Below are positions 35,057 to 61,718 of a stretch of 64,000 bases of DNA, piece after piece. Below the pieces are notes generated by a model. The model searched no databases, had not been told where the DNA came from, and worked only from the letters and a program-made list of their open reading frames with translations. The stretch lies in the NCBI GenBank assembly GCA_965199825.1, contig OZ241329.1, positions 1,280,362 to 1,344,361 on the forward strand, written 5' to 3'. The DNA is from Bdellovibrionales bacterium (GTDB lineage Bacteria; Bdellovibrionota; Bdellovibrionia; Bdellovibrionales; UBA1609). Both the position numbers and the translations under genes were made by a program. Position 1 is the first letter of the stretch; every line of letters begins with the position of its first letter.

Positions 35057-35059
35057 CTT

Positions 35060-35104: not shown

Positions 35105-35151
35105 TGAGAGCCTCAACTGTTTTGAAAACAATCCGGCTCGGTTATAGCTTC

Positions 35152-36987: not shown

Positions 36988-36992
36988 AAAAG

Positions 36993-40953: not shown

Positions 40954-41742
40954 TTAATTCAATCCGCAAGATTGTTGATCGTATATTGTTTTAATTTCTT
41001 TTGCCAAAAGTGCTGTGTTCCACACTGCAGCTTCGGCAATCGTTCCTGATGTCCAATACGCATAACCAGTGTGACCACCAATTTGTAATGTGTAGGTCGA
41101 AGAACTTGTCCACGTGGTACTCGCTGTCCCGTCAGCACGTCCATTGACATAATAGGTGATCGAAGACCCATTGATTACAGCAGCAATAAAATACCATTTT
41201 GCTAATTGCAGCGTAGTTTGCCCAGACGCGCCCGAACCAAAAACAATCTGACCAGGAGGATGTCCATAAGATCCAACTACTCCAAAAATGACATTGTTTG
41301 GACCTGATCTTTGATCGATCACGTAGTTGACGAGACTGGTGTTGTAAGCCGCAAGTTTGATCCATGCACTAAAAGTTAAACCACTTCCGCCTGCAGAACT
41401 GCCAAAGTTCAAAGTGCTTGATGCGGGCACTCCAATGTATCCTGTCGATCCATCGAACAAAGCAGCAGTCGTTCCCACTCGGCCTGGTACTCCTAATGTT
41501 GTTCCACTTTGCGGCACTCCAGTATTTGTAGCGATCGAGGAAGAGTCTGTGACACTTGTTGCTCCATAACTCTCTGCTAAGGTCCAATACCCTACGAGAT
41601 GTGACCACTGCGGTGTCCAACCTGACTTTAATTTATAGCAAGCTCCGCCTGCACCAATCATTGCTGTGAGCGAACTTGTTGGTTGAGCCAGAACAGCAGA
41701 GGGCAGACATAGAATAAAAACTTGAACTAAATAATTTCTCAT
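40954..41742 (-). CDS. LamG (concanavalin-A-like lectin, Laminin_G_3-type) domain protein
   Basis: 'LVGYWTLAES...DSS...ALFDGSTGYIGVP...LTFSAWIKL...WYFIAAVINGSSITYYVNG...LQIGG...GTIAEAAVWNTALLAKEIKTIY'. ATG 41742 overlaps the stop of the 1638-aa fibre gene as ATGA. Signal peptide 'VFILCLPSAVLAQP'. Confidence 0.7.
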   Translation of the reverse strand: MRNYLVQVFILCLPSAVLAQPTSSLTAMIGAGGACYKLKSGWTPQWSHLVGYWTLAESYGATSVTDSSSIATNTGVPQSGTTLGVPGRVGTTAALFDGSTGYIGVPASSTLNFGSSAGGSGLTFSAWIKLAAYNTSLVNYVIDQRSGPNNVIFGVVGSYGHPPGQIVFGSGASGQTTLQLAKWYFIAAVINGSSITYYVNGRADGTASTTWTSSSTYTLQIGGHTGYAYWTSGTIAEAAVWNTALLAKEIKTIYDQQSCGLN

Positions 41743-46655: not shown

Positions 46656-46679
46656 AATCTCTCCATAAATTATTTTTAT

Positions 46680-47057
46680 TTAACGAGCTTGAACCAATCT
46701 TTCCAATTGCTCGATCCGAGCTTTGAGCTCGGCTGATTCTTGTTTTGATTTTTGTTCTGCTTGTTCGAGATCTACGATTCGCTGTTTTAATTGCGTATTT
46801 TGACTATAAATCGTTTTTATTGACTCAATCACAGGAGCGATAAGGTGATCGTAGACAACCGATTTCAATCCTGACTCAGGATCGGTTTTTATCGATTGAG
46901 GATAAACCTTTTCGACATCTTGTGCGATCAATCCAATCTGCTCTTGATTTCCAAAATGCTCCTGGTCTTTCCAGTCGTAACTAACACCCTGAAGTTTTAA
47001 GATATTCTCGAGCGAATTTTGAAGTGGATCGATATTATTTTTTAGGCGCACGTCCGA
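46680..47057 (-). other. Peptidase_S74-type intramolecular chaperone/autoprotease domain plus coiled-coil tail (fibre D)
   Basis: 'SDVRLKNNIDPLQNSLENILKLQGVSYDWKD...IGLIAQDVEKVYPQSI...VVYDHLIAPVIESIK' has the Ser...Lys (S-D-x-R-x-K) dyad spacing known from endosialidase and tail-spike C-terminal chaperone domains. Confidence 0.8.
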
Positions 47058-50000
47058 GGGTGATGAACACCCAGTCGACGTGCAAACTTGAGTTCCGCCT
47101 ACGCGCAAAACATTTGTTGATGCGATATTGATGTCGCCGTTGACGTCAAGTTTGTAGGCGGGTGACGTGGTTCCGATACCGACGTTTCCGCTGACGATAA
47201 GCCCATTGGCTGGCGCAGCCGTTCCTGCATATGCTCCGATTGCGGCTTCGCCCGCAACATCAAGATGGTTCACTGGATAAATACTGATTCCGATATTATT
47301 ACTTTTTAAATAACTTGTTCCGCCGTAAGTGTTTCTAATTGTAACAGTCCCATCATATCCAAAAGCCAGTCCTGCACTCACAACTCCAGCGACATCAAGA
47401 GAATCATTAGGAGCGGTCGTCCCAATACCGACACGACCCGCCGAATAAGACAGATTCGAACCATTCTGATTCCAATAACTCGAAGTTGAAGTTCCAACAG
47501 GCACTCCATTGACGGTGAGCGATGTTGCGTTCACGGTGCCTGCGACATCAAGCTTTGTTGCCGGATTTGTTGTTCCAATTCCCACATTGCCGGTGCCATT
47601 CGGTTTGATAATAATATTGTGATTGGTTGCGCCACCGCCGCCATCGCTCGTTATAAACAAAGCTGAATTATACGTTGTGAGAGAAGCTGTATTTACACTT
47701 GAATCATAATTTGAAAACATAATTCCAGAATTCATTCTCAGGCTTCCATATTGATCAAATAGGGAGGTGCCCGCAGAACTCGTAAAGCTTGCCACATCTG
47801 TTCCGGTGGGGCTTGAGACTGAGAGTCTCGCCCCTGGATTTGATGTGCCTATGCCGACGTTGCCGGAAAAATAAGAAGGTGCTGTCGGATCGCTCGTGTA
47901 GATAGACCACTTGTTGGTTCCTTGGACTAAACCTGTGTACACACCATAGGCGGTTGAGATGACCGAACCTAGATTTTGGGTGACGGCAAAAGATCCACCA
48001 CTGGCAGTGGTAATACCACCAGTGCCTGACGTGTAGACTCCACCGTTGATTGCAGTCGCACTCCCAATTGTGGTGTTGTAGGCATTTTGCGCTTGTGCTT
48101 CGAAGCCACGAATAATTCCACTTGGAGAATTTGCTCCATTAAAACTGACTGTCGAATATCCTCCGCGGACAGTAGCAGTGGATGCACTGGATGGATAAAA
48201 ATTCTGATTCATAATAAACGCGTTGGAGCTTCCGGATGAAAGACTGACATTACCTCCCTCAACATCCAGCAAAGCAGAAGGGGCTGTTGTGCCTATGCCG
48301 ACGTTGCCGTTCGGCAGCATAGTCACGATATTTGAACCGTTGGTATTGAAATCGTATCCAGCATAGCTGGATTGAGATCCATTAAAGGTCAGTCTGCCCG
48401 TTGTTCCATTCCGGTTTAGAGAATATCCGTAGCCGGTTCCGTTATACAGACCGAGGCCAGCCCCAGCGACGATACTGCCGGTAAAACTAAAGTTTTGAAA
48501 GCCATCGGTGGAAATTGAGCTTGCTAAAGTGCCGTCTGAACGTTGTGTCTGGATAAGCGGTGAATTTGAATCAGCTATTTTAAAGACGGAGCCCGTAACC
48601 TTAACGCTTCCAGTGACATCCAGTGCTTGAGACGGGTTCGTAATACCGATCCCAACATTCCCACCAACAATCAACGACCCACCTATACTAGAATTATTTA
48701 CTACCGATAATCCAGTGCCTGTGCCACTTACTGTGACTGCGCCGGAAAAAGTTTCGGCTCCCGCTACAGTTTGACCACCTGAAGTACTAAGCAGAGAGCC
48801 GTAAGCTCCACCGTTCTGTGAAAGCATCAGTTGATTCGATGTCGAATCAAAATACATTCTGGCCTGTGCGGTTGGCGAAAGTGCTGGCGCCGACATCGCA
48901 TGCAGCGAAACCGCGCCATTAAGATCAAGAGTCGATGCGGGTGAGATTGTGCCGATGCCGACGTTGCCTCCGTTTGGATTTAATAAAATCGGGTAACTCA
49001 CACCAAAATTTCCACGATCGTGCCCTTGAAACCAAATACCATTTGGTGGCGATGCATAAGCTCCAATGTCTAATAGATTTCCATAGGCATAGCTGCCGCC
49101 GACTCGTAAAATTCCTACCGGGGCAGCTGCATTTCCATTGTAGTCGCTGGTCGTGCCAGCGATTTCAAGAGGGAGCGATGGGTGAGTTGTGCCGATTCCG
49201 ACATTCCCATCATTTCCGCTACCGGTCGTCTTGCTCCCAGGTTTTAGGAGTATGTGTCCGCCATTGCCGCCACCATTACCCCCACCATTTCCTGCAGTGA
49301 CAACAACACTTCCTCCGCTGCCGCTCAGTGATCCGTCTGCTGCGGTGATATTTATATTTGATGAAGCGTCTGAGGCTGAATTGCCGAAGAAGAGGGTCCC
49401 ACTTCTGATGTTAACTGCGCCTCCACCATAATTTCCGCCTCCAGCAGTTATGTTTACCGCACCACCACCGCCCGATCCGTTGCCAGCAGAAAGATTAAGA
49501 ACACCGCCAAGACCATTTGCTGATGAAGCACTGCTTGCCGCTCCTGCAGAGATGTTCACAGTACCAGCATTGCCATGGCCGGCTGCAGGATCTGTATTCG
49601 AACCTGCGGTGAGAGTTATATTTCCAGCAGTCGGTCCAGCATAAATATCGTTATTGCTCGAGCCTGCGACTAAAAAAATTGAAGCCGGGCTTGTACTTGT
49701 CGGAGCTCTCACATCTAGGATGCCTGCAGGATTTGTTGTGCCAATTCCCACATTCCCATTATACCCGATTCGCATTCTTTCTTGATTTAAACCAAAACTA
49801 TTTAAGACACCACTTGTTCTAAAAACAATATTGGTATTGTCGTCATCAAAATTGGATTGTCGAAGAACTCCAATCGACGCGAATGGTGAATTAGTGCTTT
49901 GGTTTGAGCCAAAAATAATATTTCCCATCGATGATCCGTCGTCAGGATTCCCATGCGTGTCATGTAAAAAGACTTGAGGGGAAGATGCGGTAACATCCAG

Positions 50001-51011
50001 AATACCAGTCGGATTTGTCGTGCCCACGCCCACATTGCCATTGCCCATTACTGTCATCTTAGTCGAAGGGGAGTGACTCGAAGTCCCCGAGCTCGCAGGC
50101 GAAGAAGTTTGAAATTGAATTGCAGAACTTCCGCCACCGGTTGCAATTCCAGATGAGAGATTGAGTGTTCCACCATTTTGATCGGTGCTTGATATGGTTG
50201 CTCCACCCGCAGACACAGTTAAATTATTTCCTTGTGAAGCGGTTGAGCGCTCCATTGCAATATTGCGCGCGACATTGCCGCCAAAACTTAAATCTGAACT
50301 TGGATTTGTCGTGCCCACACCAACGCGACCTGAAGTACCATTCACAAAAAAGTTGCCTGAACCAATATTGAGATTGCCGCTTGCGAGGCCCATAAATGAA
50401 TTTGATGTTCCATTGATCAGTGCCAGCAACTCGGTGTAAGCGCTTGAAGCCATGATGGCATCGACTTTAGATTGCGTTGTGTCGGTATTCGTTTGCAAAA
50501 AACCAGAAGAAGCCGCGCTCGAAAGTCTTTCAGCCTCAATCGCATAAGGCACAGACTGAATCACATAAGGTTGAGCAAAGGCCACGGTGTCGGGCCCGTC
50601 GACAAAGCTCACATAAATATTTCGTGAGTCGGTGGGGAGCGGAGAATATGCGGTGGCAGTTGGTGCGCCCACACAGTTTAAGCTCGACAATGTTCCGGTG
50701 TTTGCAAAAACATTTGGGATTGAAAGTCCAAGATCATTTGCGGTTCTCGTGCCCGTACCTAAGGTGACCAAAAATATTCCGTTGGATGCGGTCATATTTA
50801 AAGAATAGCTTTCTTCAAACACCGTACATTCGGGCCTCGTGCCCGCAATCGACATGCTGGTAATTCTAAAAGTGACATCGACGTTTGAGTCTTCGACCAC
50901 AACGCCGTCTTTTAGAAGTTGCCCTTGAAAAGTAATTCCTTGTGGGCCTGCTTTGGCGACTTTCCCTAAACAAAATAAGAGTAAACCAAAAATAAATTTA
51001 TTTTTTAACAT
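46680..51011 (-). CDS. giant fibre protein D (type-2 N-module, Gly-rich beta-helix-like segment, C-terminal S74 chaperone domain)
   Basis: 1443 aa with signal 'GKVAKA|GPQG'. It has the family N-module, 'GGGNGGGNGGHILLKPG' and the C-terminal 'SPSDVRLKNNIDPL...'. Confidence 0.85.
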   Translation of the reverse strand: MLKNKFIFGLLLFCLGKVAKAGPQGITFQGQLLKDGVVVEDSNVDVTFRITSMSIAGTRPECTVFEESYSLNMTASNGIFLVTLGTGTRTANDLGLSIPNVFANTGTLSSLNCVGAPTATAYSPLPTDSRNIYVSFVDGPDTVAFAQPYVIQSVPYAIEAERLSSAASSGFLQTNTDTTQSKVDAIMASSAYTELLALINGTSNSFMGLASGNLNIGSGNFFVNGTSGRVGVGTTNPSSDLSFGGNVARNIAMERSTASQGNNLTVSAGGATISSTDQNGGTLNLSSGIATGGGSSAIQFQTSSPASSGTSSHSPSTKMTVMGNGNVGVGTTNPTGILDVTASSPQVFLHDTHGNPDDGSSMGNIIFGSNQSTNSPFASIGVLRQSNFDDDNTNIVFRTSGVLNSFGLNQERMRIGYNGNVGIGTTNPAGILDVRAPTSTSPASIFLVAGSSNNDIYAGPTAGNITLTAGSNTDPAAGHGNAGTVNISAGAASSASSANGLGGVLNLSAGNGSGGGGAVNITAGGGNYGGGAVNIRSGTLFFGNSASDASSNINITAADGSLSGSGGSVVVTAGNGGGNGGGNGGHILLKPGSKTTGSGNDGNVGIGTTHPSLPLEIAGTTSDYNGNAAAPVGILRVGGSYAYGNLLDIGAYASPPNGIWFQGHDRGNFGVSYPILLNPNGGNVGIGTISPASTLDLNGAVSLHAMSAPALSPTAQARMYFDSTSNQLMLSQNGGAYGSLLSTSGGQTVAGAETFSGAVTVSGTGTGLSVVNNSSIGGSLIVGGNVGIGITNPSQALDVTGSVKVTGSVFKIADSNSPLIQTQRSDGTLASSISTDGFQNFSFTGSIVAGAGLGLYNGTGYGYSLNRNGTTGRLTFNGSQSSYAGYDFNTNGSNIVTMLPNGNVGIGTTAPSALLDVEGGNVSLSSGSSNAFIMNQNFYPSSASTATVRGGYSTVSFNGANSPSGIIRGFEAQAQNAYNTTIGSATAINGGVYTSGTGGITTASGGSFAVTQNLGSVISTAYGVYTGLVQGTNKWSIYTSDPTAPSYFSGNVGIGTSNPGARLSVSSPTGTDVASFTSSAGTSLFDQYGSLRMNSGIMFSNYDSSVNTASLTTYNSALFITSDGGGGATNHNIIIKPNGTGNVGIGTTNPATKLDVAGTVNATSLTVNGVPVGTSTSSYWNQNGSNLSYSAGRVGIGTTAPNDSLDVAGVVSAGLAFGYDGTVTIRNTYGGTSYLKSNNIGISIYPVNHLDVAGEAAIGAYAGTAAPANGLIVSGNVGIGTTSPAYKLDVNGDINIASTNVLRVGGTQVCTSTGCSSPSDVRLKNNIDPLQNSLENILKLQGVSYDWKDQEHFGNQEQIGLIAQDVEKVYPQSIKTDPESGLKSVVYDHLIAPVIESIKTIYSQNTQLKQRIVDLEQAEQKSKQESAELKARIEQLERLVQAR

Positions 51012-51020
51012 CTGTCATCC

Positions 51021-51395
51021 TTAACGCTTTTGATTGAGCTTTTCGAGTTGATCCATGCGTGACATCATCGCCGCAGTTTGTTCTTCGAGTTGGACTACGC
51101 GTTCCTTGAGGGCTTTGTTTTCTGTATCTAACGAAGTGATTCTTTCATAAATAGTTTTTATTGATTCAATCACAGGAGCGATAAGATGGTCATAAGCAAT
51201 AGACTTGTAACTTGAACGTAAATCGGTCTTAACCGCTTGGGGATATATTTTTTCGACATCTTGTGCGATCAAACCGATCTGTTCTTCTGCTCCGAATGAT
51301 TCTTGATTCCAGTGATAGCTTACACCTTGCAGCTGCAAGATTTTTGCAAGTGAATCTTCAAGTGGCTCAACATGGTTTTTGAGTCTGAGGTCTGA
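51021..51395 (-). other. S74-type intramolecular chaperone domain (fibre C)
   Basis: 'SDLRLKNHVEPLEDSLAKILQLQGVSYHWNQ...IGLIAQDVEKIYPQAV...IAYDHLIAPVIESIK' plus a heptad-like tail. Confidence 0.8.
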
Positions 51396-54300
51396 AGGTG
51401 AGGTGCAGCCACTTGATGAACAAACCGAATTTCCACCAAAGCGTAACACATTGGCCGAGGCGATATTGACATCACCGCTAACATCCAGTGTGTAGGCGGG
51501 CGAAAGGGTTGCGATTCCAACATTTCCATTGCCCGCAGGTTTTATAATAATATTTTTAGAAGGGGATTGCTGATAGCCCGAAGTGATATACAGATCGTTA
51601 AAAGCCGAATAAGCAAAACTACTTATATTTGCATCGTAGCCAGCAACTAAATTCGCGTTAAATATGGACACACCGTATTGATTTACTCGAAATGCATCGC
51701 CGTATTGAGATGCTATAAATAGCGCGTCAGTTCCAGCGTCGGACACAATATTTAATTTTGCAGATGGAGTCAGCGTACCGATCCCGACATTCCCACCTTT
51801 TGGATTCAACAGTATTGGATAGGTGGCCCCAAAATTTCCGCGGTCGTGGGCTTGAAACCAAATTCCGTTGGGGTAAGCGGCATACGCACCAATGTCTAAA
51901 AGATTTCCGTATCCATTACTGCTTTCTATTCGGAGCATTCCTGCAGGACTAATCTCACTGCCATTCGAATCTAAAGTGCTGCCTGCAATATCGAGAGGAA
52001 GTTTTGGGTTGATTTTACCGATGCCGACGTTGCCCGCCGGTGCCGCGAGCGTTCCGTTCATTCCGGTTGCGAAAATCACGTTGCCGATATTTAAATAATT
52101 GCTTGTTGCTGCAAGTGGAGTATCGACCGAGTTTCCAATCAAAATATTTGATGATCCCGATTGAAGAGTTGCTGAGCCAACTCCGTTTCCAACTAAAATA
52201 TTGTCACTTCCGCTAACGTTCGTGCTTCCGGATGATGCGCCAAGAGCAGTATTTCGTGATCCTGTTGTATTGATGAGAGAGTTCCATCCAACAGCAGTGT
52301 TATAATTGGTGGTTGTCACATTTTGAAGTGCGGAGGCACCGAGTGCGGTATTTTGCGAACCTGTGGTCACTCTGTATGCTGTGTTTAACCCTAAGGCTGT
52401 GGTGTTATTTGCTGTACTCAATACCGTGCACGAACCATTACCCACACACGCATTATTTCCACCAGAATTGACATTGGTGAGTGATTTAAATCCAATCGCT
52501 AAATTATTTGATCCGGTCAGTGGACTGCCCGAACCCATGGCGTAAGTGCCGATGGCAATGTTATACGAGCCTGTTCCGCAGGTGCCAGTAGTCTGGTTTT
52601 TAAGTGCGTTGTTTCCGATTGCGATACTCGAACCTGCTGGCGTGCAGCTGTCTGGAGGTAAACTAAAAGCATTTAATCCATTGACTGAGATCGTGCCATT
52701 GACGTCAAGTGAGCTTGCGGGTGATGTTGTGCCGATTCCGACATTACCATTTGATAAAACTCGAATTCGCTCGGTGGCATTCGACGAGATCGCTGCGCCA
52801 TTTGCATCGTAATAAAATCCATTGCCGTAATTTCCAAAATTCACCGCATTGGGTGCGCCGTAGCCCGAGGTGAATCTCCAGGCTGTGATTCCGCCATTAA
52901 TTTGAAAATCATCTACTGGACTTGTTGTTCCGACCCCAACTTTCCCGGATTGAGTTATTGTCACTATTTTTGTTCCGTCATTCAGTTGAAAACTGAGCGC
53001 ATCGTTATTGATCGTATCGTCGGCGATAAGAAAATATTTGCTTGCACCGGTTCTTTTCAAACCGATGCTTGGCCCCACAAGCGATGTTGGAGCGCCAGAA
53101 TATTCAAGTAGGACAGTAGAGTTGCCAGCATATGCAGAGAGTGTGTGGAGTGACGATCCGTCGGTCATTGAGTTGGTACCGATACCTAGGCCTGCCATTC
53201 GCCCAATTCCGTAGACGTCTAACAAAGCGGAGGGCGAGGTTGTCCCAATTCCCACGCTTCCATTTTCCACTACACGCAATACTGAAGTGCCTCCAGAGGA
53301 TAGATCAATCTGGCCGACTAAAGGTGTGGAGCCATTTAAAAATTTTAAAGCTGCGGTTTGAGTCGAGCCCACGTACTGCAACATTCCTCCTGTTACAGTA
53401 TACGGAGTTCCGATCCCACTCCCACTTTCATAGTAGTGTACTGATCCTCCATCTGAGCTATTGTTGACAAAAGAAGCCAACCCACTCCGTCCACCATACC
53501 CATCAGTAGATAAAAATTGTTTAGCGCTGGTTGTTCCCATCACTTGAAGAGTGGAAACAGGGGTGGTTGTCCCTATCCCTACATTTCCATTGGACAACAA
53601 CGTCATGACATTGTAATCACCAGTGGCTGAAATGTTGGCCGTTGATTTTAAGTTAATATCTAACTCAGTTGTTGGCCCATATCCGTTGGTATAACTACCG
53701 AGTTTAAATGTCGCAACATTGGGCCATGCGACCCCGGAATTTAGCGGACGAATCAATTGGAGAATATTACTTGTGCTCGCTAGATTCGAGGCTGTTGAAC
53801 CTTGAATTTCCAAATTAGCTTGCGGTGTCGTCGTCCCAATCCCCACATTCCCATTCCCCAAAACAGTCATCTTAGTCGAAGGGGAGTTACTCAAAGTCCC
53901 CGATGAAGCAGGCGAGGATGTTTGAAATTGAATCGCCGATGAACCTGCGCCCGTCGAAATTCCAGATGAGAGATTCAGTGTTCCACCATTTTGATCGGTA
54001 CTTGATGTGGTCGCACCACCCGCAGACACAGTTAAATTATTTCCCTGCGATGAAGTCGCGCGCTCCATCGCAATCGTTCGCGCAACATTGCCACCAAAAC
54101 TAAGATCTGAACTGGGATTCGTCGTGCCCACACCAATTCTGCCTGAGCCCAAATTTAGATTTCCACCCGCAAGGCCTGCAAACGAAGTCGATGTTCCATT
54201 GATCAACGCGAGCAACTCCGCATAAGGCGTGCTCGCAAAGATCGCATCCACTTTAGATTGAGTGGTGTCGCTGCTGGTTTGCAAAAATCCTGATGAAGCT

Positions 54301-54791
54301 GCACTCGACAGTCTTTCGGCCTCGATGGCATAAGGCACCGACTGAATCACATAAGGTTGAGCAAAGGCCACGGTGTCTGGTCCATCAACAAATGAGACAT
54401 AAATGTTCCGTGAGTCGGTGGCTAAAGGTGTGTACGCAGTTGCGGTTGGTGCCCCCACACAGTTCAAGCTCGACAATGTTCCGGTGTTGGCAAAAACATT
54501 TGAGATCGAAAGACCAAGATCATTTGATGTTCTCGTGCCCGTGCCTAAAGTGACCAAAAATATGCCGTTCGAGGCGGTCATATTAAGAGAATAGCTTTCT
54601 TCAAACAAGGTGCATTCAGGGCGCGTGCCACTCACAGGCATGCTGGTGATTTTGATTGTGACATCCACGTTTGAGTCTTCGACAATCACACCGTCTTTTA
54701 AAAGTTGGCCTTGGAAGGTGAGGCCTTGGGGGCCAGCAAAAACGGATCGACAAAAAAGAGCGAAAACAAAAAACCATAAATTCAATTTCAC
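51021..54791 (-). CDS. giant fibre protein C (type-2 N-module, 'NTALG' beta-roll repeats, C-terminal S74 domain)
   Basis: 1256 aa with a GTG start after 'aaggaag' and signal 'RSVFA|GPQG'. It has the family N-module, repeats at about 52075-52640, and the C-terminal 'SPSDLRLKNHVEPL...'. Confidence 0.85.
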   Translation of the reverse strand: MKLNLWFFVFALFCRSVFAGPQGLTFQGQLLKDGVIVEDSNVDVTIKITSMPVSGTRPECTLFEESYSLNMTASNGIFLVTLGTGTRTSNDLGLSISNVFANTGTLSSLNCVGAPTATAYTPLATDSRNIYVSFVDGPDTVAFAQPYVIQSVPYAIEAERLSSAASSGFLQTSSDTTQSKVDAIFASTPYAELLALINGTSTSFAGLAGGNLNLGSGRIGVGTTNPSSDLSFGGNVARTIAMERATSSQGNNLTVSAGGATTSSTDQNGGTLNLSSGISTGAGSSAIQFQTSSPASSGTLSNSPSTKMTVLGNGNVGIGTTTPQANLEIQGSTASNLASTSNILQLIRPLNSGVAWPNVATFKLGSYTNGYGPTTELDINLKSTANISATGDYNVMTLLSNGNVGIGTTTPVSTLQVMGTTSAKQFLSTDGYGGRSGLASFVNNSSDGGSVHYYESGSGIGTPYTVTGGMLQYVGSTQTAALKFLNGSTPLVGQIDLSSGGTSVLRVVENGSVGIGTTSPSALLDVYGIGRMAGLGIGTNSMTDGSSLHTLSAYAGNSTVLLEYSGAPTSLVGPSIGLKRTGASKYFLIADDTINNDALSFQLNDGTKIVTITQSGKVGVGTTSPVDDFQINGGITAWRFTSGYGAPNAVNFGNYGNGFYYDANGAAISSNATERIRVLSNGNVGIGTTSPASSLDVNGTISVNGLNAFSLPPDSCTPAGSSIAIGNNALKNQTTGTCGTGSYNIAIGTYAMGSGSPLTGSNNLAIGFKSLTNVNSGGNNACVGNGSCTVLSTANNTTALGLNTAYRVTTGSQNTALGASALQNVTTTNYNTAVGWNSLINTTGSRNTALGASSGSTNVSGSDNILVGNGVGSATLQSGSSNILIGNSVDTPLAATSNYLNIGNVIFATGMNGTLAAPAGNVGIGKINPKLPLDIAGSTLDSNGSEISPAGMLRIESSNGYGNLLDIGAYAAYPNGIWFQAHDRGNFGATYPILLNPKGGNVGIGTLTPSAKLNIVSDAGTDALFIASQYGDAFRVNQYGVSIFNANLVAGYDANISSFAYSAFNDLYITSGYQQSPSKNIIIKPAGNGNVGIATLSPAYTLDVSGDVNIASANVLRFGGNSVCSSSGCTSPSDLRLKNHVEPLEDSLAKILQLQGVSYHWNQESFGAEEQIGLIAQDVEKIYPQAVKTDLRSSYKSIAYDHLIAPVIESIKTIYERITSLDTENKALKERVVQLEEQTAAMMSRMDQLEKLNQKR

Positions 54792-54812
54792 GAAACTTCC
54801 TTTAATAAAACT

Positions 54813-55226
54813 TTACTGCATTAACATTTCGAGCCGAGCCATACGCTTGAGCATTTGTGCATTTTCTTTTTCAAGACGATCCATTCGAATCGTCATCTGG
54901 GCTTTTTCTGATTCAAGTTGTTCGGATTTTAATTTCAACGCTGCAAGCTCCGAATCGGTTGAGATCAATTTTGAGTAAATAGATTTAATTGACTCAATAA
55001 TTGGCGCAACCAAATGATCATAGGCCACCGATTTGATGCCGGATTGAGAATCTGTTGAGATCGCTTCGGGATAAATTTTTTCGACTTCTTGAGCGATCAA
55101 GCCAATTTGTTTATTTTTGTTAAATCGCTCTTTGTCTTGCCAGTCATAACTGACGCCACGAAGATCTAAAATATTTTCTAAAGCATTCTCAAGAGGCTGA
55201 ATATTTTCTTTGAGTCGCAAGTCAGA
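54813..55226 (-). other. S74-type intramolecular chaperone domain (fibre B)
   Basis: 'SDLRLKENIQPLENALENILDLRGVSYDWQD...IGLIAQEVEKIYPEAI...VAYDHLVAPIIESIK' plus a long coiled-coil-like tail. Confidence 0.8.
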
Positions 55227-58200
55227 AGGTGAAGTGCATCCGGTCGAAGAGCAAACTTGGTTGCCGCCAAAGCGAAGTAGATTTGCCGAAGCAATATTCA
55301 AATCTCCACCCACATCGAGTTTGTAGCCAGGTGTTAAAACTCCAACACCCACATTTCCATTTGAGAGGATGTCCATGTAGTGGCTGTAGGCAGCACTGTT
55401 GTAGTTTTGAAATGTGATGCGCCCATTGTTGCCAGCAATAAAATCCAACTGCCCAACTCTTCCAGAGTAATTCGGACCATAAAGCGTCATTGCTGCGCCG
55501 TCGTTTGATCCTGTGTTGGCAGCAAAATCGATTCTTCCTGAGCTGTCGTCTGTTCCGGTTCGGGCGGCATAAATAGATGGCGAATTTCCAGAAAGTTTTA
55601 TTTTTCCTGCAACTTCGAGCATTTCGGATGGGCTGATCGTGCCGATTCCAAATCCCGAACCGGTTAGACGCATTCGTGGTGTGCCGCCGAGATACCAGTT
55701 CATCGTGTTCATCCCAATAAATCCAAAACTCAACTCGTTGTACGATTCAACGGTTACAAGATTCTGATTATTTCCGGCGGTGTCTTTTCCGTAGAGCGCA
55801 TTTCCATTTGCGATCACCATACTCCCATTCACATCGAGTGTGGCTGAAGGTGATGTTGTGTTGATTCCAACTTTGCCAGGTGCTGCGCTGTAAAGTCCTA
55901 CGCCCGGTTGTAAAATAATATTTCCGCCTGAGTATCCTGAATTAACACCGGTACCTGCTGTGACATTGACGTTTCCGCCAGAGGCTCCGGGTGAAGTTCC
56001 GCCATTGCCTGCAGTGAGGTTGAGTGCGCCACCGGTAGCGTAGAGAGAATTACCACTAATTATGTTTATAGGGCCTCCTGCGCCATTACCGCCCGCATAC
56101 CCTCCGTTGAGATTAAGCGCTCCGCCTACAATATTGCCTTTTGAAGTTCCACTTGAAAGTGTCAGCGCTCCAGCCGCACCATTTCCGCTGCTTGTATTCG
56201 ATCCCGATTGTAAAGTGACTGCTCCTGCAGTTGTAGACGTGGCGCTATTTCCTGCAACAAGGTTGATCGCCGCGGAATTTGAGCCGCCCTCCACATCTAA
56301 AATTCCAGCAGGACTTGTCGTCCCGATCCCAACATTGCCCGCAGAGTCGATGGCCAAACGCGATGTTGAATTAGTAATCAAAGACAGTTTAGCTGAGGCC
56401 GCGTCTGCACCCATCCCGATTCCGCTGTAATCGCGAAATCCAAACGCGGGCACGGTCATTGTTGAAGTCGAAAGCGCAATGTAAGCCCCCGCAGTGGTAG
56501 CTCTCATGGCCTGCTTCAATTCAATTTCACCGCCATAAGAAAATAAAACGGGCGAGCCGCAGTTTGAAATTCCGATGCTGCAATTGGCATTGCTGTAAAG
56601 ACCACCCACATTCGGAATTGAAAATGCAGGAGAAGTGACGCTACTTGCTCCTGATGAAGCAAACGAACTCGATGTGAGCGATCCACCAACATTTGCATTG
56701 TTGGTGACCGATAAGCCAGTACCCGCGGCACTTGCGGTCACTGCACCAGAAAATGTTTCTGCCCCAGAAATAGTTTGTCCACCTGAGGTGCTTAAGAGTG
56801 ATCCGTATGCGCTTCCATTTTGAGAAATCATCAGCTGATTCGCCGTTGAATCGAAATACATTCGTGCTTGTGCCACAGGCGAAAGTGGGGGAGCCGAACT
56901 TGCTCGCAAAGAAAATGCACCATTCAGATCGAGAGGTGTGGCGGGAGATGTTGTGTTGATTCCAACATTTCCGCTCGAGCTCACTTGCAAACCAGTATAG
57001 TTTATATAGTAATTTAAATTTGGTTTTGTTTGCGAGATCGATACAATCATCGAACTGCTACTGGAGACAGAAAGTATTGTTCCCCCCGCAACACCGTCTG
57101 CAAAAACGAATTGCGAACCAATAAGGTCTGAGGTCCACATCGTTCCTGAACCGGTGATTGTGGTTCCTGACTGCGTTGCCAATCCGGTTTGATATTGAGC
57201 GGGCGATGCAGAAAATGGATTCATCGGAAACAGAGTATTCACCCCAACATAACTCGAGTTCTTCACAATCAATCCCGTTGTGAAGTTCAGGCCTACTCCT
57301 GCAGCTGGCACTGCTGGAGCTGTCCGTAATAAAATATCACCGTGATCAAATCCGATTTGTTGAGCCGGATTGTAGGCTGTTTGACTTGCCCAAAATCCAA
57401 TGTTGGTTGTTCCTGCTGACAAATAGTAATTTCCGAAAAAGGGTTGAAAGTTGAAACTGCTGCCACCAGGGGTGCTATTCATACTGATCGATCCGTAATC
57501 ACCAACCGAGAAATTTATTTTCTGTCCCCGAACGTCGAGCTGACTTCCAGGACTTGTCGTCCCGATCCCAACATTGCCCGCACCATCAAATCGCGCGACC
57601 TCTTTCGTTGTTCCGCTTTGAGCGGTAGAAATCGCTAAGTAGCCGCCCTCACTTCCTTGAGTCGTAGTTTGAATTCCAGATGTAATATTTGAAAAATCAA
57701 ATTTGTTTCCGCTACCATTTAACGCTTCGAACAACATTCTTGGTGAAGCCACATTTGAGATTCTAAAAACATCGGTACTATCACTTGCGACGTAGAGCTT
57801 TGAAAATGCATAAGGACTGGCTTCACCAATCCCGACATTGCCGGATGGAGAAATGGTGAGAGCCGCATAATTCGGCGAGCGATCGGTTGTTCCGTTGCCT
57901 TGAAAACTTTTAACAATATTTAAAGCGATGCCCGAGCCGCCATTGCCGGTTGCCATTCCCGCATTTAAATTGAGTGTTCCACCATTTTGATTGGTGCTCG
58001 ATGAAGTCGCACCACCCGCAGCCACAGTTAAATTATTTCCTTGCGACGAAGTCGCGCGTTCCATCGCAATCGTGCGCGCGACATTGCCACCAAAACTGAG
58101 ATCTGAACTGGGATTCGTCGTGCCCACACCAATTCTGCCTGAGCCCAAATTTAAATTACCGCCTGCAAGTCCTGCAAACGAAGTGGAGGTGCCGTTGATC

Positions 58201-58772
58201 AATGCGAGCAATTCCGCATAAGGCGTGCTCGCAAAAATCGCATCCACTTTAGATTGGGTGGTGTCGCTGCTGGTTTGTAAAAAACCCGACGACGCCGCAG
58301 TCGAAAGTCTTTCGGCTTCAAAGGCATAAGGGACGGATTCAATCACATAAGGAGCAGAAAATGCCACGGTGTCAGGTCCATCAACAAAGCTCACATAAAT
58401 ATTTCGTGAATCAGTGGGCTGCGGAGTGTAGGCGGTAGCAGATGGTGCTCCTATACAATTCAAACTCGAAAGTGTTCCCGCATTTTGAAAAACATTGGAG
58501 ACCGAAAGACCAAGATCATTGGACGTTCTTACACCTGTACCTAAAGTCACCGCAAAGATGCCGTTCGAATTTGTCATGTTGAGTGGAAAGGTTTCTTCGA
58601 ATAAAACACATTCAGGCCTCGTGTTTATCATGGGCATGCTTGTCACTCGAATGGTGAGGTCTACAGTGGGCGACTCAACAACCACGCTGTCTTTTAAAAG
58701 CTGTCCTTGAAAGGTGATGCCTTGAGGGGCAGCATAAATAAAATGTGTTAAAATTAAATTTAATAAAATCAT
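54813..58772 (-). CDS. giant fibre protein B (type-1 N-module, Gly-rich beta-helix-like segment, C-terminal S74 domain)
   Basis: 1319 aa with signal 'HFIYA|APQG'. Its N-module is nearly identical to that of fibre E. C-terminal 'SPSDLRLKENIQPL...'. Confidence 0.85.
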   Translation of the reverse strand: MILLNLILTHFIYAAPQGITFQGQLLKDSVVVESPTVDLTIRVTSMPMINTRPECVLFEETFPLNMTNSNGIFAVTLGTGVRTSNDLGLSVSNVFQNAGTLSSLNCIGAPSATAYTPQPTDSRNIYVSFVDGPDTVAFSAPYVIESVPYAFEAERLSTAASSGFLQTSSDTTQSKVDAIFASTPYAELLALINGTSTSFAGLAGGNLNLGSGRIGVGTTNPSSDLSFGGNVARTIAMERATSSQGNNLTVAAGGATSSSTNQNGGTLNLNAGMATGNGGSGIALNIVKSFQGNGTTDRSPNYAALTISPSGNVGIGEASPYAFSKLYVASDSTDVFRISNVASPRMLFEALNGSGNKFDFSNITSGIQTTTQGSEGGYLAISTAQSGTTKEVARFDGAGNVGIGTTSPGSQLDVRGQKINFSVGDYGSISMNSTPGGSSFNFQPFFGNYYLSAGTTNIGFWASQTAYNPAQQIGFDHGDILLRTAPAVPAAGVGLNFTTGLIVKNSSYVGVNTLFPMNPFSASPAQYQTGLATQSGTTITGSGTMWTSDLIGSQFVFADGVAGGTILSVSSSSSMIVSISQTKPNLNYYINYTGLQVSSSGNVGINTTSPATPLDLNGAFSLRASSAPPLSPVAQARMYFDSTANQLMISQNGSAYGSLLSTSGGQTISGAETFSGAVTASAAGTGLSVTNNANVGGSLTSSSFASSGASSVTSPAFSIPNVGGLYSNANCSIGISNCGSPVLFSYGGEIELKQAMRATTAGAYIALSTSTMTVPAFGFRDYSGIGMGADAASAKLSLITNSTSRLAIDSAGNVGIGTTSPAGILDVEGGSNSAAINLVAGNSATSTTAGAVTLQSGSNTSSGNGAAGALTLSSGTSKGNIVGGALNLNGGYAGGNGAGGPINIISGNSLYATGGALNLTAGNGGTSPGASGGNVNVTAGTGVNSGYSGGNIILQPGVGLYSAAPGKVGINTTSPSATLDVNGSMVIANGNALYGKDTAGNNQNLVTVESYNELSFGFIGMNTMNWYLGGTPRMRLTGSGFGIGTISPSEMLEVAGKIKLSGNSPSIYAARTGTDDSSGRIDFAANTGSNDGAAMTLYGPNYSGRVGQLDFIAGNNGRITFQNYNSAAYSHYMDILSNGNVGVGVLTPGYKLDVGGDLNIASANLLRFGGNQVCSSTGCTSPSDLRLKENIQPLENALENILDLRGVSYDWQDKERFNKNKQIGLIAQEVEKIYPEAISTDSQSGIKSVAYDHLVAPIIESIKSIYSKLISTDSELAALKLKSEQLESEKAQMTIRMDRLEKENAQMLKRMARLEMLMQ
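57973..58266 (-). repeat. near-identical ~294-nt tract shared with 60273-60566 (fibre B vs fibre A)
   Basis: My base-by-base comparison at a constant offset of 2300 nt finds only 3 mismatches. The flanks diverge much more. Confidence 0.8.
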
Positions 58773-58801
58773 TTGGGTCCCTTTTCAATAGATAGCAATC
58801 T

Positions 58802-59179
58802 TCAATGAGGAGAAATTAATTTTTCAAGGCGTTCGAAGCGTGCCGAAGATTGAGCCGCCTCAAACTCAAGCTGACTCACTTTTTCCTTAAGCACTGCATT
58901 TTCGTTTCTTAAAGCTGTGATTTGTTCATAAATTGATTTTATTGATTCAATGACAGGAGCCACAAGATGATCGTAAGCAATCGATTTAAAGCCCGATTCA
59001 GAATCAGTTTTTACAGTTTCTGGATAAATAGCTTCGACTTCTTGTGCAATCAAACCGACTTGATTTTGTTTTCCAAACTGACTTTGATTTTTCCAATGAT
59101 AATTCACACCTTGAAGCTTTAAAATATTCTCAAGAGAGTTTTGCAGCGGCTCAATATCTTCTTTTAACCGCGCATCTGA
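58802..59179 (-). other. S74-type intramolecular chaperone domain (fibre A)
   Basis: 'SDARLKEDIEPLQNSLENILKLQGVNYHWKN...VGLIAQEVEAIYPETV...IAYDHLVAPVIESIK'. Confidence 0.8.
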
Positions 59180-61072
59180 TGGCGAGGTACATCCAGTTGA
59201 GGAACACACTTGGGTTCCACCAAAACGCAAGGCATTTGCTGAAGCGATATTTATGTCGCCATTGACGTCGAGCTTGTAATTGGGCGGATTCGTCCCGATC
59301 CCGACGTTGCCGCCGCCCGAGGGCAGCAATAAAATACTACTCATAGAATTGGAGCCCCAACCCGATGTTAAATAAAGTGAGTTTACAGATCCGTATCCAC
59401 CGGGACCGCCGAGATTTGGATCGTTTCCGACAATTTGTCCGTTTGAACTTGAAAGTCCGCCGTAGCGATCAAAAGTAAAATTCGAGTAGGGTGTGGCGAT
59501 GCGAACAAGATCAACGCCCGTTGCACCTTGCACAACCAGCGGCATTGCGGCAGAAGTTGTTCCAATCCCCACATTGCCGCTAAAAGTTGCGTTTCCCACA
59601 CCATCATCAATCAAATTTCGAAATACGGGATTTCCAAATGCACCACTCATACTGCCAACAGCGCCGTTCGGGTTCATTCCAAAAAATGTTTGGTTGCCAT
59701 TGGCGGGGATAGCACCTTGTAACGCGCCCGAAATGTTGTACATCCCGAGTTGAGCTTTTCCGTAGCTCTGGCCAAAATAGGATCCTAAGGTTCCACTAAA
59801 ATCTCCGGCGTTGCGTATTCTTAAACTTGGATCTGTTATCACTGCTTCGACTACACCAGAGGGAGAATTTGTGCCCAAGCCGACATTTCCAGTGCCTCGA
59901 TCGATGAACAAAGCGGAGATGCCCGCGTAAGAACTCTCATGGCGGAGTATGTTTAATCCGCGGGGAATTATGTCTTCGTTGTTGATTGTGAATCCGTAAT
60001 AATCATCATAAAAACGCAACTTGATTCCATTGGTGTGAATGCTTCCTCCGGCACCGTTGATTCTTAGATAAGCATTCGCGGGTGTGTTGATGAGAGCTGA
60101 AAGTTCGAGCAACTCTGTTGGTGCTGAATTTCCGATCCCTACATTGCCATTTCCAAGCAAGGTCATCCTTGTCGAAGGCGTATTACTCGCAGTCCCTGAA
60201 CTTGCAGACGAAGAAGTCTGAAACTGAATCGCCGATGCACCAGCGCCCGTAGAAATCCCAGATGAAAGATTCAGTGTTCCACCATTTTGATTGGTGCTCG
60301 ATGATGTCGCACCACCCGCAGCCACAGTTAAATTATTTCCTTGCGACGAAGTCGCGCGTTCCATCGCAATCGTGCGTGCGACATTGCCACCAAAACTGAG
60401 ATCTGAACTGGGATTCGTCGTGCCCACACCAATTCTGCCTGAGCCCAAATTTAAATTACCGCCTGCAAGTCCTGCAAACGAAGTGGAGGTGCCGTTGATC
60501 AATGCGAGCAATTCCGCGTAAGGCGTGCTCGCAAAAATCGCATCCACTTTAGATTGGGTGGTGTCGTTGCTGGTTTGCAAAAATCCCGATGACGTCGCAG
60601 TCGAAAGTCTTTCGGCCTCAATTGCATAAGGGACCGACTGAATCACATAAGGTTGAGCAAAGGCGACGGTGTCGGGTCCATCAACAAACGAGACATAAAT
60701 ATTTCGTGAGTCGGTGGGGAGTGGAGTGTAGGCCGTTGCGGTTGGTGCACCCACACAATTCAAACTCGAAAGTGTTCCGGAGTTTGCAAAAACATTTGAG
60801 ATCGCAAGTCCAAGATCATTTGCGGTTCTGGTGCCCGTACCTAAAGTGACTAAAAATATTCCGTTGGATGCGGTCATATTTAAAGAATAACTTTCCTCAA
60901 ACACCGTACATTCTGGCCGTGTACCCGCAACCGGCATGCTGGTGATTTTAAAAGTGACATCGACATTTGAGTTTTCGACCACGACACCGTCTTTTAAAAG
61001 TTGACCTTGAAAAGTCACACCTTGAGGTCCGGCATAAACAAATTGGCTGAAACAAAAAATAAAGAAGAACAT
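58802..61072 (-). CDS. fibre protein A (type-2 N-module, short shaft, C-terminal S74 domain)
   Basis: 756 aa with signal 'SQFVYA|GPQG'. It has the family N-module and the C-terminal 'SPSDARLKEDIEPL...'. It starts 9 nt after the lipoprotein gene. Confidence 0.85.
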   Translation of the reverse strand: MFFFIFCFSQFVYAGPQGVTFQGQLLKDGVVVENSNVDVTFKITSMPVAGTRPECTVFEESYSLNMTASNGIFLVTLGTGTRTANDLGLAISNVFANSGTLSSLNCVGAPTATAYTPLPTDSRNIYVSFVDGPDTVAFAQPYVIQSVPYAIEAERLSTATSSGFLQTSNDTTQSKVDAIFASTPYAELLALINGTSTSFAGLAGGNLNLGSGRIGVGTTNPSSDLSFGGNVARTIAMERATSSQGNNLTVAAGGATSSSTNQNGGTLNLSSGISTGAGASAIQFQTSSSASSGTASNTPSTRMTLLGNGNVGIGNSAPTELLELSALINTPANAYLRINGAGGSIHTNGIKLRFYDDYYGFTINNEDIIPRGLNILRHESSYAGISALFIDRGTGNVGLGTNSPSGVVEAVITDPSLRIRNAGDFSGTLGSYFGQSYGKAQLGMYNISGALQGAIPANGNQTFFGMNPNGAVGSMSGAFGNPVFRNLIDDGVGNATFSGNVGIGTTSAAMPLVVQGATGVDLVRIATPYSNFTFDRYGGLSSSNGQIVGNDPNLGGPGGYGSVNSLYLTSGWGSNSMSSILLLPSGGGNVGIGTNPPNYKLDVNGDINIASANALRFGGTQVCSSTGCTSPSDARLKEDIEPLQNSLENILKLQGVNYHWKNQSQFGKQNQVGLIAQEVEAIYPETVKTDSESGFKSIAYDHLVAPVIESIKSIYEQITALRNENAVLKEKVSQLEFEAAQSSARFERLEKLISPH
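60273..60566 (-). repeat. near-identical ~294-nt tract shared with 57973-58266
   Basis: See the partner feature: 3 mismatches in about 294 nt. Confidence 0.8.
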
Positions 61073-61081
61073 TTATTTTCC

Positions 61082-61627
61082 TTACCTTTGGAAGGTTTGG
61101 GTTTGGACGCCGCCTTTGAGCGTGTAGCGGCCACTTGTTTTTACAGCTCCTGGCTCTTGGTTTCCAAAATTGCCTAGCAGCTCGTAGCGACTATCGGTGG
61201 ATGTGATTTTTTTTGCGCCAGCGATGGCTCCAAAGACCGATCGGCCCATGGGTGTTGTGAACACAACGTCGGATTTTAATACGATTGCCACATTGTTAAC
61301 CAAAATTGTTTTCACCCCCACTTGAGTGCTTCGCAAAATGCAGGTGGATACTCCATTGCTATTCGAAGTTGTGCAGGGCAGAGCGGTGACGCCACCGCCT
61401 GACACAACAGTGTAGGTGGGTCTAAATCCAACAACCGGAGTGCTGTCAGAATTTGTTAATTGGATGACGATCAATAAATCGGATTGCCCATCAGCTGCAG
61501 CAGGACCGTTGGAAATGATTTCTGATTTTTTAAAATCTTGGATCGATGCGTGTTTGAAAGTTCCAGTGATGGTGCCTTTTGAGCAGTTGACCAAAAACAA
61601 AAAAGTGAGAAAAATAAAAAAACGCAT
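61082..61627 (-). CDS. lipoprotein with bacterial Ig-like (Big_1-type) domain, first gene of the fibre array
   Basis: Lipobox 'FLVNC'. 'AADGQSDLLIVIQLTNSDSTPVVGFRPTYTVVSGG...NSNGVSTCILRSTQVGVKTILV'. It has the same size and layout as the lipoprotein at 2965-3531. Confidence 0.6.
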   Translation of the reverse strand: MRFFIFLTFLFLVNCSKGTITGTFKHASIQDFKKSEIISNGPAAADGQSDLLIVIQLTNSDSTPVVGFRPTYTVVSGGGVTALPCTTSNSNGVSTCILRSTQVGVKTILVNNVAIVLKSDVVFTTPMGRSVFGAIAGAKKITSTDSRYELLGNFGNQEPGAVKTSGRYTLKGGVQTQTFQR

Positions 61628-61718
61628 AAGCTTGTCCCCCGACGCATGCCAGGCTACCGAGCTATTTCATAGAATGTGAAACGGTTTTTTATTTTGCAAC
61701 CCACTCCGTCGCAAAAAA

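Follow-up and report, generated by a model that had tools for sequence, protein, structure and literature searches.

A near-identical tract shared by adjacent MAT fibre genes suggests recent gene conversion within a tandem array of a Bdellovibrionales bacterium

We show that two adjacent, co-oriented fibre genes, A and B, in a 64,000-nt stretch of a Bdellovibrionales genome (hereafter the window) share a near-identical tract embedded in much more divergent sequence. This tract very likely arose by recent homologous, non-reciprocal copying of about 300-380 nt between the two genes, that is, by interlocus gene conversion. As a result, fibre B is a mosaic of three parts: its N-domain is E-like, its neck and first stalk module are A-like, and the remaining stalk and the tip are its own. 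The process is textbook gene conversion between tandem paralogues; the example is new and the mechanism is known. Our evidence base is one genome.

Judged by sequence and domain matches, the five tandem genes, A to E (Table 1), are members of the mosaic adhesive trimer (MAT) family of fibres found in Bdellovibrio-like predators. MAT proteins combine a signal peptide, a beta-rich N-domain of ~130 aa, a repetitive trimeric stalk and variable tips, and end either in an S74 chaperone with an SDxxxK motif or, in the NS74 subgroup, in an alternative tip (Caulton et al. 2024, PMC10769870). All five genes described here are full-length, with a start codon, an RBS-like spacer and a signal peptide (a hydrophobic N-terminus ending in an A-x-A-like site), and each protein carries 4-10 GNVGIG-type repeats. 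Fibres A-D have a SD[ALV]RLK motif (SDARLK in A) and the Pfam domain Peptidase_S74 (PF13884; E-values 1e-17 to 1e-19, with 1.8e-19 for A and 1e-19 for B); fibre E is without both and gives a weak, sub-threshold match to YadA_head. Residues 793-907 of B match PDB entry 8ond (Bd2133; E-value 7.6e-6). In the AF2 model of A, a beta-rich N-domain spans residues 20-145 (block-mean pLDDT mostly 74-96) and neck helices occupy residues 173-192, while the monomer model is of low confidence over residues 199-276. The tract encodes this helical neck and the first stalk module, between an N-terminal domain of two types and the variable stalk. MAT fibres have been proposed to set which prey a bacterial predator recognises (PMC10769870); fibres A-E may likewise be displayed on the surface and take part in prey recognition.

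The genes are separated by spacers of only 9-29 nt, and all are encoded on a single contig of 2,777,499 bp. Around the array lie genes for chemotaxis, two-component systems, a porin and GH5 enzymes, and a domain scan of 39 window ORFs found no phage genes.

Table 1. Positions of the fibre genes, the shared tract and its edges, in window coordinates
Feature	Position	Strand	Description
Fibre A gene	58802-61072	minus	756 aa; signal peptide, N-domain, neck, stalk, C-terminal S74 chaperone; ORF call
Fibre B gene	54813-58772	minus	1319 aa; S74-type MAT fibre; ORF call
Fibre C gene	51021-54791	minus	1256 aa; ORF call
Fibre D gene	46680-51011	minus	1443 aa; ORF call
Fibre E gene	41739-46655	minus	1638 aa; non-S74 type; ORF call
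Core conversion tract, B copy	57973-58266	minus	codons 170-267; encodes DTTQSKVDAIFASTPYAELLALINGTSTSFAGLAGGNLNLGSGRIGVGTTNPSSDLSFGGNVARTIAMERATSSQGNNLTVAAGGATSSSTNQNGGTL
Core conversion tract, A copy (probable donor)	60273-60566	minus	codons 170-267; 291/294 match to B copy
Proximal shoulder, B (ragged 5' edge of tract, gene sense)	58267-58352	minus	87.2% identity to A 60567-60652
Proximal shoulder, A	60567-60652	minus	87.2% identity to B 58267-58352
B N-terminal beta-rich domain region	58353-58715	minus	type 1 (E-like); 71.6% nt identity to A
A N-terminal beta-rich domain region	60653-61015	minus	type 2 (C/D-like); A-D dS 0.50, A-C dS 0.74
Distal breakpoint, B	57972 (A: 60272)	minus	abrupt; identity 99% to 39%

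A sequence-only reading of this DNA had reported that the A and B tracts align at a constant offset of 2300 nt with three mismatches, and that the two proteins become unrelated just 3' of them. Both observations hold: 291 of 294 positions are identical (99.0%) with no indels, and A-B identity falls to 39% over the distal flank in gene sense (57873-57972). The same reading assigned A, with C and D, to one N-module and B, with E, to another, a grouping that our analysis reproduces below. Two points are corrected here. The gene-proximal edge is not sharp but an 86-nt mosaic shoulder at 87% identity, and the earlier estimate of about 85-90% for the corresponding tracts of C and E holds approximately for C (53977-54270; 91% identical to both A and B) but not for E (45826-46125), which is only 81% identical to both. 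The corresponding D tract matches A and B at 78% and has a 27-nt insertion and a divergent neck; E has a neck close to those of A, B and C but diverges in the distal half of the first stalk module.

The three A/B mismatches, at B coordinates 58005, 58077 and 58218 (B/A: T/A, G/A and T/C), are all at synonymous third-codon positions, which indicates that purifying selection has kept both A and B intact from the event onwards. These differences also bear on whether the tract is an artefact of assembly or polishing, in which reads of one paralogue homogenised some 300 nt of the other. Reads of tandem paralogues that are about 85-90% identical easily map to the wrong copy; we nevertheless regard such an error as highly improbable, given that the copies differ at three synonymous sites, that the tract edge is graded and interleaved, that both ORFs remain in frame, and that the single contig suggests a finished assembly.

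The confinement of A-B similarity to the tract is evident at several levels. Sliding-window identity between the two genes is far from uniform: it lies at 53-83% over the N-domain, rises to 98-100% within the tract and drops to 42-51% beyond. Synonymous divergence, measured as Nei-Gojobori dS, is 1.39 in the N-domain and 1.7 beyond the tract, against 0.067 within it, where the other pairs range from 0.39 to 1.26; the collapse in dS is thus limited to this pair and this tract. The sequence-only reading had named two outcomes that would speak against conversion, uniform identity along the N-terminal region and equal synonymous divergence in tract and flanks; neither was observed. Bins of roughly 35 codons, for which we also calculated pS and pN, repeat the dS picture, with an A-B pS of 0.04-0.07 in the tract versus 0.30-0.87 upstream and 0.72 downstream, while pS for A-C, B-C, A-E and B-E is 0.18-0.77 in the tract codons. 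Chance as the origin of the A-B identity is excluded. In a GENECONV-style permutation analysis the best A-B fragment had 8 mismatches over 116 polymorphic sites (p<=0.0002, the floor set by 5000 permutations of polymorphic sites). Even with the mismatch rate of the closest other pair (~8.5%), a binomial model gives a probability of 2e-8 for seeing at most three mismatches across 294 nt.

Phylogenetic signal changes in the same place. In neighbour-joining trees, B groups with E at 100% bootstrap support in the N-domain and with A at 100% in the tract. The N-domain holds 38 sites that partition the genes as ACD|BE and the tract holds none, and N-domain dS is 0.71 for B-E versus 1.39 for A-B. Together, the dS values, the permutation result and the switch in topology support the earlier proposal of recent non-reciprocal recombination between array members. 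The term non-reciprocal is justified because two retained, near-identical copies require copying, whereas a reciprocal swap would not homogenise them.

Could the neck and first stalk module have stayed alike with no recombination at all, under very strong purifying selection or a constraint at the nucleotide level? At the amino-acid level no other part of the five proteins is as conserved as this region (pN for A, B and C is 0.00-0.05), and synonymous divergence is somewhat lower there for several pairs. However, selection on protein leaves synonymous sites free, and over the same codons the A-B pS lies well below that of the other pairs; nor would constraint account for a topology switch at full support. 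Moreover, the tract showed no Rfam match, no opposite-strand ORF of at least 100 aa in the ORF list, and no inverted repeat. The dS and pS values, the permutation and the trees contradict an explanation by constraint alone, to which we assign a negligible probability. At the same time, since synonymous divergence in the tract is also reduced for pairs other than A-B (for A-C, dS is 0.41 versus flank values of 0.74 and 1.03), either evolution is slower in this region or older conversions have left their mark there.

The distal edge of the tract calls for a separate consideration. The breakpoint coincides with the point where the B stalk ceases to be homologous to all four other fibres, and the 150 nt that follow contain 35 ACDE|B sites; a tip-swap junction, too, would be expected to show a tract that stops precisely where homology stops. 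The tract might be the remnant of a recent duplication, in which B (or A) was newly assembled from a copy of its neighbour's neck and module segment, with the E-like N-domain acquired by homologous crossover and the unrelated stalk and tip joined at 57972 by tip swapping or by a homology-facilitated illegitimate join. Such an origin would suit the abruptness of this edge. It would also suit the repeat unit of the array, which runs from the S74 end of a gene across the spacer into the N-region of its neighbour (a D/B HSP of 1430 nt and the junction-block profile), as expected from unequal crossovers, and the recurrence of the ~80-aa stalk module at many positions in homologues. Nevertheless, at least two recent joins would be needed, versus one event for conversion. 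The N-domain of B is also long separated from all copies in the window: because its dS to E is 0.71, an unseen paralogue would have to have served as recent N-domain donor, and a protein search listed no further close paralogue on the 2.78-Mb contig beyond A, C and E, though the array's own D was unlisted too. Finally, the interleaved shoulder resembles heteroduplex repair. We therefore consider a duplication remnant quite unlikely. Elsewhere in the array, the S74 ends are 65-75% identical throughout, and we found no further recent tracts.

For gene conversion between A and B, the sequence comparison most probably points to copying from A to B. A resembles C and D inside the tract and on both flanks, and at sites where C and D share a base that E lacks, the common A/B sequence follows C/D 25 times and E 5 times. 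Most of the sites that give this direction fall in the distal tract half, and there it could be E whose sequence was replaced. The dS between B and E is similar in the tract (0.67) and in the N-domain, which would also fit B as the native copy.

A plausible course of events is as follows. RecA-type strand exchange would have begun in the conserved neck. Since every other fibre pair still has exact matches of 23-55 nt in its N-terminal region, the earlier sequence of B probably offered seeds of similar length. The heteroduplex would then have grown distally until blocked at the non-homologous B stalk, which would leave the abrupt distal edge, and a patchily repaired zone at the proximal end would have produced the mosaic shoulder. 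In the B shoulder (alignment columns 465-531), A-only and E-shared sites are interleaved, with three ACD|BE, two AB|CDE and one AB|CD|E site.

Programmed systems of variation find no counterpart at this locus. Diversity-generating retroelements have a reverse transcriptase and a TR/VR pair that differs at adenines, with a C-terminal variable region; here, no reverse transcriptase domain was present among the 39 window ORFs scanned, and the A/B mismatches are of mixed type, synonymous and located in a conserved N-proximal region. An invertase shufflon was likewise rejected, as 41700-61700 contains no inverted repeats of at least 20 nt, all genes are co-oriented and no recombinase was found among the scanned window ORFs. 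Silent-cassette variation of the pilE/pilS type was rejected as well, all five copies being complete ORFs, none truncated or silent.

The fibres resemble the MAT fibres of B. bacteriovorus in their signal peptide, N-domain, GNVGIG-type stalk and S74 (A-D) or non-S74 (E) C-terminus (PMC10769870). The passages of that paper that we searched report no DNA-level recombination tracts, unlike what we find for A and B. The present fibres differ further in that the N-domain aligns to B. bacteriovorus proteins at only 32-34% identity (E-values 1e-13 to 1e-17), and in that the five genes here form a tight tandem array.

Interlocus gene conversion and concerted evolution are known for bacterial paralogues such as tufA/tufB in Salmonella, and have reportedly been reviewed by Santoyo and Romero (2005). 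The A/B case shares the short near-identical tract, diverged flanks, synonymous collapse, tree incongruence and retention of both copies, but differs from tuf-like conversion in that the tract covers no more than a single module between domains of a modular adhesin; because one tract edge lies at a homology boundary, the outcome is a new mosaic and not the homogenisation of a whole gene. Phage tail-fibre genes, which are reported to be mosaic (Haggard-Ljungquist 1992; Sandmeier 1994), are comparable in having conserved proximal and exchangeable distal receptor-binding parts, exchange at conserved blocks and S74-type intramolecular chaperones. In contrast, the present locus is chromosomal and cellular, and exchange took place between tandem paralogues of one genome rather than between phages. 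Cassette-based antigenic variation, as in Neisseria pilE/pilS, Borrelia vlsE and Treponema tprK, also involves non-reciprocal copying of segments within a surface-protein gene family, guided by conserved blocks. Here, however, the genes are complete, there is no silent cassette and no G4 element near the tract, the copied part is conserved rather than variable, and nothing indicates a high frequency.

Searches for comparable arrays returned distant relatives. A genome-contig protein scan for a close strain or orthologous array gave relatives at only 45-53% identity, exact-pattern and profile scans of metagenome contigs were both without a match, and a search of 5.8 billion proteins recovered the genome's own copies and then only relatives at 58% identity or less. 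The nearest relatives are proteins of Bdellovibrionales or Bdellovibrio MAGs (45-58% identity). MAT loci around B. bacteriovorus and Bdellovibrionaceae genes (L047-L049) are single genes with no arrays, and two further loci (L001 and L002) also have no arrays. Self-BLAST of 46 genome loci detected high-identity repeats only in three unrelated S74 loci (L017, L023 and L031). In our literature search, gene conversion among MAT genes was nowhere reported; one paper describes MAT genes that lie side by side in Peredibacter, with recombination unmentioned.

The authors of the MAT description speculate on "tip swapping" from the structural independence of tips (PMC10769870). Set beside that proposal, which there is structural only, the A/B tract is direct sequence evidence of homologous exchange between MAT paralogues, sited at the joint of the anchoring N-domain and the variable stalk. 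It is plausible that the conserved block acts as a crossover joint that shuffles tips onto N-modules, as had been suggested from the sequence. Two observations are consistent with that idea: the position of the tract, precisely at the transition from N-domain to variable stalk, and the lack of correspondence between the type of N-domain and the type of stalk or tip. That the neck and first stalk module form a dedicated recombination joint, kept similar across the array by recurrent conversion, seems to us doubtful. If they did, crossovers there and in the S74 block could exchange, delete or duplicate stalk-tip cassettes within a population, allowing fast heritable re-sorting of prey-binding tips onto two classes of anchoring N-domain. 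One predicted product is a 2300-bp deletion fusing the A N-domain to the B stalk, and recombinant junctions in the tract block should be detectable in long-read population data. For the engineering of chimeric fibres, the tract marks a natural joint, whose proximal side falls near residues 146-170 and whose distal side falls near residue 267.

Fibre genes A and B, two of five tandem genes (A-E) for fibres of the mosaic adhesive trimer (MAT) family, align from their start codons with zero indels at an offset of exactly 2300 nt and are identical at 291 of 294 positions across one tract, confirming the near-identity with three mismatches that a sequence-only reading of this DNA had described. All three differences (B 58005, 58077 and 58218) are third-position and synonymous. 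The tract is 91% identical to C, 78% to D and only 81% to E, whose divergence had been underestimated at 85-90% identity, and three or fewer mismatches in 294 nt would have a probability of about 2e-8 even if A and B differed as little as the next closest pair. Sliding-window identity between A and B, a check proposed in that reading, proved non-uniform: it is 53-83% in the N-terminal domain (N-domain), rises to 98-100% within the tract and falls to 42-51% past it. A-C, A-D and B-E have no comparable step. The proximal edge of the tract, towards the gene start, had been taken as sharp and is instead graded, through an 86-nt shoulder.

The proposed check on synonymous divergence (dS, Nei-Gojobori, on the codon alignment) pointed the same way: A-B dS drops to 0.067 in the tract versus 1.39 in the N-domain and 1.7 after the tract, the corresponding ranges for all other pairs being 0.39-1.26, 0.50-1.47 and 0.79 to saturated. 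Binned at about 35 codons from the N-domain side, A-B pS runs 0.83, 0.87, 0.42, 0.38 and 0.30, continues at 0.04, 0.05 and 0.07, and then returns to 0.72. Our own GENECONV-style permutation test (maximal fragment over 377 polymorphic sites, site order permuted 5000 times) found a best A-B fragment that spans 116 polymorphic sites and mismatches at 8 of them (p<=0.0002), still significant after correction for the ten pairs tested. The suggested grouping of N-domains, type 2 in A, C and D and type 1 in B and E, holds at 38 ACD|BE sites and in neighbor-joining trees (B+E, 100% bootstrap). Within the tract, the site-partition count found no ACD|BE sites, frequent splits are ABCE|D (33) and ABCD|E (25), and A+B receives 100% bootstrap; after the tract, ACDE|B occurs at 35 sites. 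That selection alone keeps A and B alike was rejected, being contradicted by the synonymous-site and tree results; uniform purifying selection cannot yield the observed identity, dS and tree pattern. Non-reciprocal recombination, as originally proposed, stands: a reciprocal swap is ruled out because both retained copies are nearly identical, which requires copying. An assembly or polishing artefact could in principle have homogenised the tract, but the three synonymous differences between the copies, the graded mosaic edge and the intact reading frames make this unlikely.

Features of the fibre array, its surroundings and the comparison loci (positions in the window unless a fetched locus is named)
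Feature	Position	Strand	Description
Fibre A	58802-61072	-	756 aa ORF
Fibre B	54813-58772	-	1319 aa ORF
Fibre C	51021-54791	-	1256 aa ORF
Fibre D	46680-51011	-	1443 aa ORF
Fibre E	41739-46655	-	1638 aa ORF
Distal 100 nt, B	57873-57972	-	39% identity to A
Core tract, B	57973-58266	-	99.0% identity to A
Core tract, A	60273-60566	-	
Shoulder, B	58267-58352	-	87.2% identity to A
N-domain part, B	58353-58715	-	71.6% identity to A
D neck region	50160-50480		
E, distal half of first stalk module	45826-46000		
G-quadruplex-type motif, C	53835-53859		G-rich on C coding strand
Ig-like putative lipoprotein	61082-61627	-	Big_1 sub-threshold; lipobox LFL[VI][NS]CS
Ig-like putative lipoprotein	2965-3531	+	Big_1 sub-threshold; lipobox LFL[VI][NS]CS
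Laminin_G_3 / concanavalin-like lectin-fold protein	40954-41760	-	overlaps E stop
GH5 cellulase-family enzyme	39391-40884	-	
Three tandem paralogous ORFs	33227-38705	+	609, 654 and 570 aa
Distant MAT-like gene	3546-8300	+	1584 aa
Direct repeat in distant MAT-like gene	5796-6232, 6240-6676		437 nt, 85% identity
Lipoprotein homologue	L001 4434-4889		53% identical
Direct repeats, S74-fibre loci	L017 5768-7174; L031 5450-13882; L023 8149-18274		270-914 nt, 92-98% identity

As to direction, we consider A the probable donor and B the recipient, because A is C/D-like throughout (A-C dS 0.74 before, 0.41 within and 1.03 after the tract), because B is E-like before the tract, and because at tract sites where E differs from a state common to C and D, A and B follow C and D 25 times and E 5 times. 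These informative sites lie in the distal half, where E itself might carry an altered copy, and the B-E dS of 0.67 in the tract, equivalent to the 0.71 in the N-domain, is a caveat on this direction. B is unlike all other fibres after the tract. In its shoulder, A-specific states are interleaved with retained E-like states, as patchy mismatch repair at a heteroduplex end would leave them, and the distal tract edge is the exact point where B loses family homology, where branch migration may have been stopped by heterology. That edge would instead be a tip-swap junction if the tract were a recent duplication with both flanks since replaced; we give this little credence. It is less parsimonious than conversion, calling for a pair of recent joins and for an N-domain donor not seen here. 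Exact matches of 23-55 nt occur in the N-terminal region between all other pairs, so the earlier B sequence probably had strand-exchange seeds of that size. With the 140-nt perfect match that it now includes, the A-B tract is well suited to further crossover, and such an event would remove or duplicate 2300 nt. Programmed systems were rejected, with no inverted repeats of at least 20 nt in 41700-61700, no silent cassettes, no reverse transcriptase among the 39 ORFs scanned and no G4 near the tract; no Rfam element was found in the tract. The array has a single G-quadruplex-type motif, within sequence encoding GNGNVGIG and about 120 nt to the distal side of the C tract homologue; it is probably just a consequence of glycine codons.

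An AlphaFold2 model of A residues 1-340 (monomer, 30 aligned sequences) predicts a beta-rich domain at residues 20-145, mostly with high confidence, and short helices at residues 173-192, here named the neck. Confidence is low at residues 199-276, as expected when a trimeric stalk is predicted from a single chain. The neck (A residues ~161-205) invariably comes after the N-domain in homologues, and the next ~80 residues (GNLNLGSGRIGVGTTNP...GGTLNL) form a module found at many positions, often in several copies per protein, in other fibres; this first stalk module is also repeated in the stalks of C, D and E at ~30% identity. The shoulder begins at residue 146, the N-domain end, and the core tract covers residues 170-267, ending with the first stalk module, so that the tract forms the joint where anchoring domain meets variable stalk.

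The architecture of fibres A-E is that of the MAT family of Caulton et al. (PMC10769870). The five co-oriented ORFs are separated by spacers of only 9-29 nt, and the proteins are encoded on one 2.78-Mb contig. A Peptidase_S74 intramolecular chaperone (Pfam, E 1e-17 to 1e-19) forms the C-terminal end of A-D, with the SDxRLK catalytic motif; Pfam and motif searches found neither in E. Residues 793-907 of B match PDB 8ond, the Bd2133 fibre of Bdellovibrio bacteriovorus, and the N-terminal domain is 32-34% identical to proteins named Bdellovibrio bacteriovorus (E 1e-13 to 1e-17) and at most 57% identical to Bdellovibrionales / Bdellovibrio MAG proteins. The neighbours are ordinary chromosomal genes (chemotaxis, two-component systems, porin, GH5 enzymes, DNA repair), and no phage module, reverse transcriptase or recombinase was found among the scanned ORFs around the array. 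Directly downstream of E lies a Laminin_G_3 gene, followed by that of a GH5 enzyme; these two may be partners of the array that are co-transcribed, one binding glycans and the other cleaving them. Beyond these are three tandem paralogous ORFs without a Pfam family, the first two with ~65% nucleotide identity across 1.9 kb.

No second recent tract was found in the five-gene array: over stretches of similar length no other pair exceeds ~91%, and between fibres the S74 ends share 65-75% identity. Older layers are visible. The neck of E is near those of A, B and C (pS 0.25-0.29 versus 0.47-0.69 in most N-domain bins), whereas that of D is strongly divergent (pN 0.17 versus 0.00-0.01 for the others) and carries a 9-codon (27-nt) insertion. 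Across the distal half of the first stalk module it is E that stands apart (pN 0.23), resembling the family again just past it. The D neck and the E half-module resemble older replacements, with the segments drawn from donors not seen here. N-domain type does not follow tip type, B and E both having type 1 and only B an S74 domain, and the repeat unit of the array comprises an S74 end, a spacer and the N-region of the next gene (1430-nt D/B match). These layers are consistent with segmental exchange and unequal crossover having occurred repeatedly, and they make it plausible that the conserved block may serve as a crossover point for tip shuffling.

Gene conversion between tandem paralogues is well known, and its occurrence here would not surprise a specialist. 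MAT fibres were likewise known, and the passages of PMC10769870 on their tips already propose tip swapping, stating that independent folding 'may aid tip swapping'. We came across no description of conversion tracts at the DNA level between MAT genes in the literature searched. The A-B tract adds a fresh, clear-cut case of an established process in an already described family, and is a useful lead for population sequencing and chimera design.

The window also holds a sixth, distant MAT-like gene, whose N-domain shares 33% identity with those of A and B (E about 1e-20 by tblastn), whose C-terminus is a Gly_rich_2 domain, not S74, and which contains an internal direct repeat. Directly in front of each of the two MAT loci of the window, and in the same orientation, is a small gene for an Ig-like putative lipoprotein. 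The two are homologous (30% identity, E 9e-9), and a further homologue sits immediately 5' of the MAT gene in L001, the closest MAG locus. PMC10769870 mentions a surface partner for the MAT N-domain but does not identify it; the Ig-like putative lipoprotein is a candidate. Local direct repeats were also seen in three unrelated S74-fibre loci of Patescibacteria and Bacteroidetes MAGs (L017, L031 and L023); among S74 fibre loci, recent copying within a locus may be a common occurrence.
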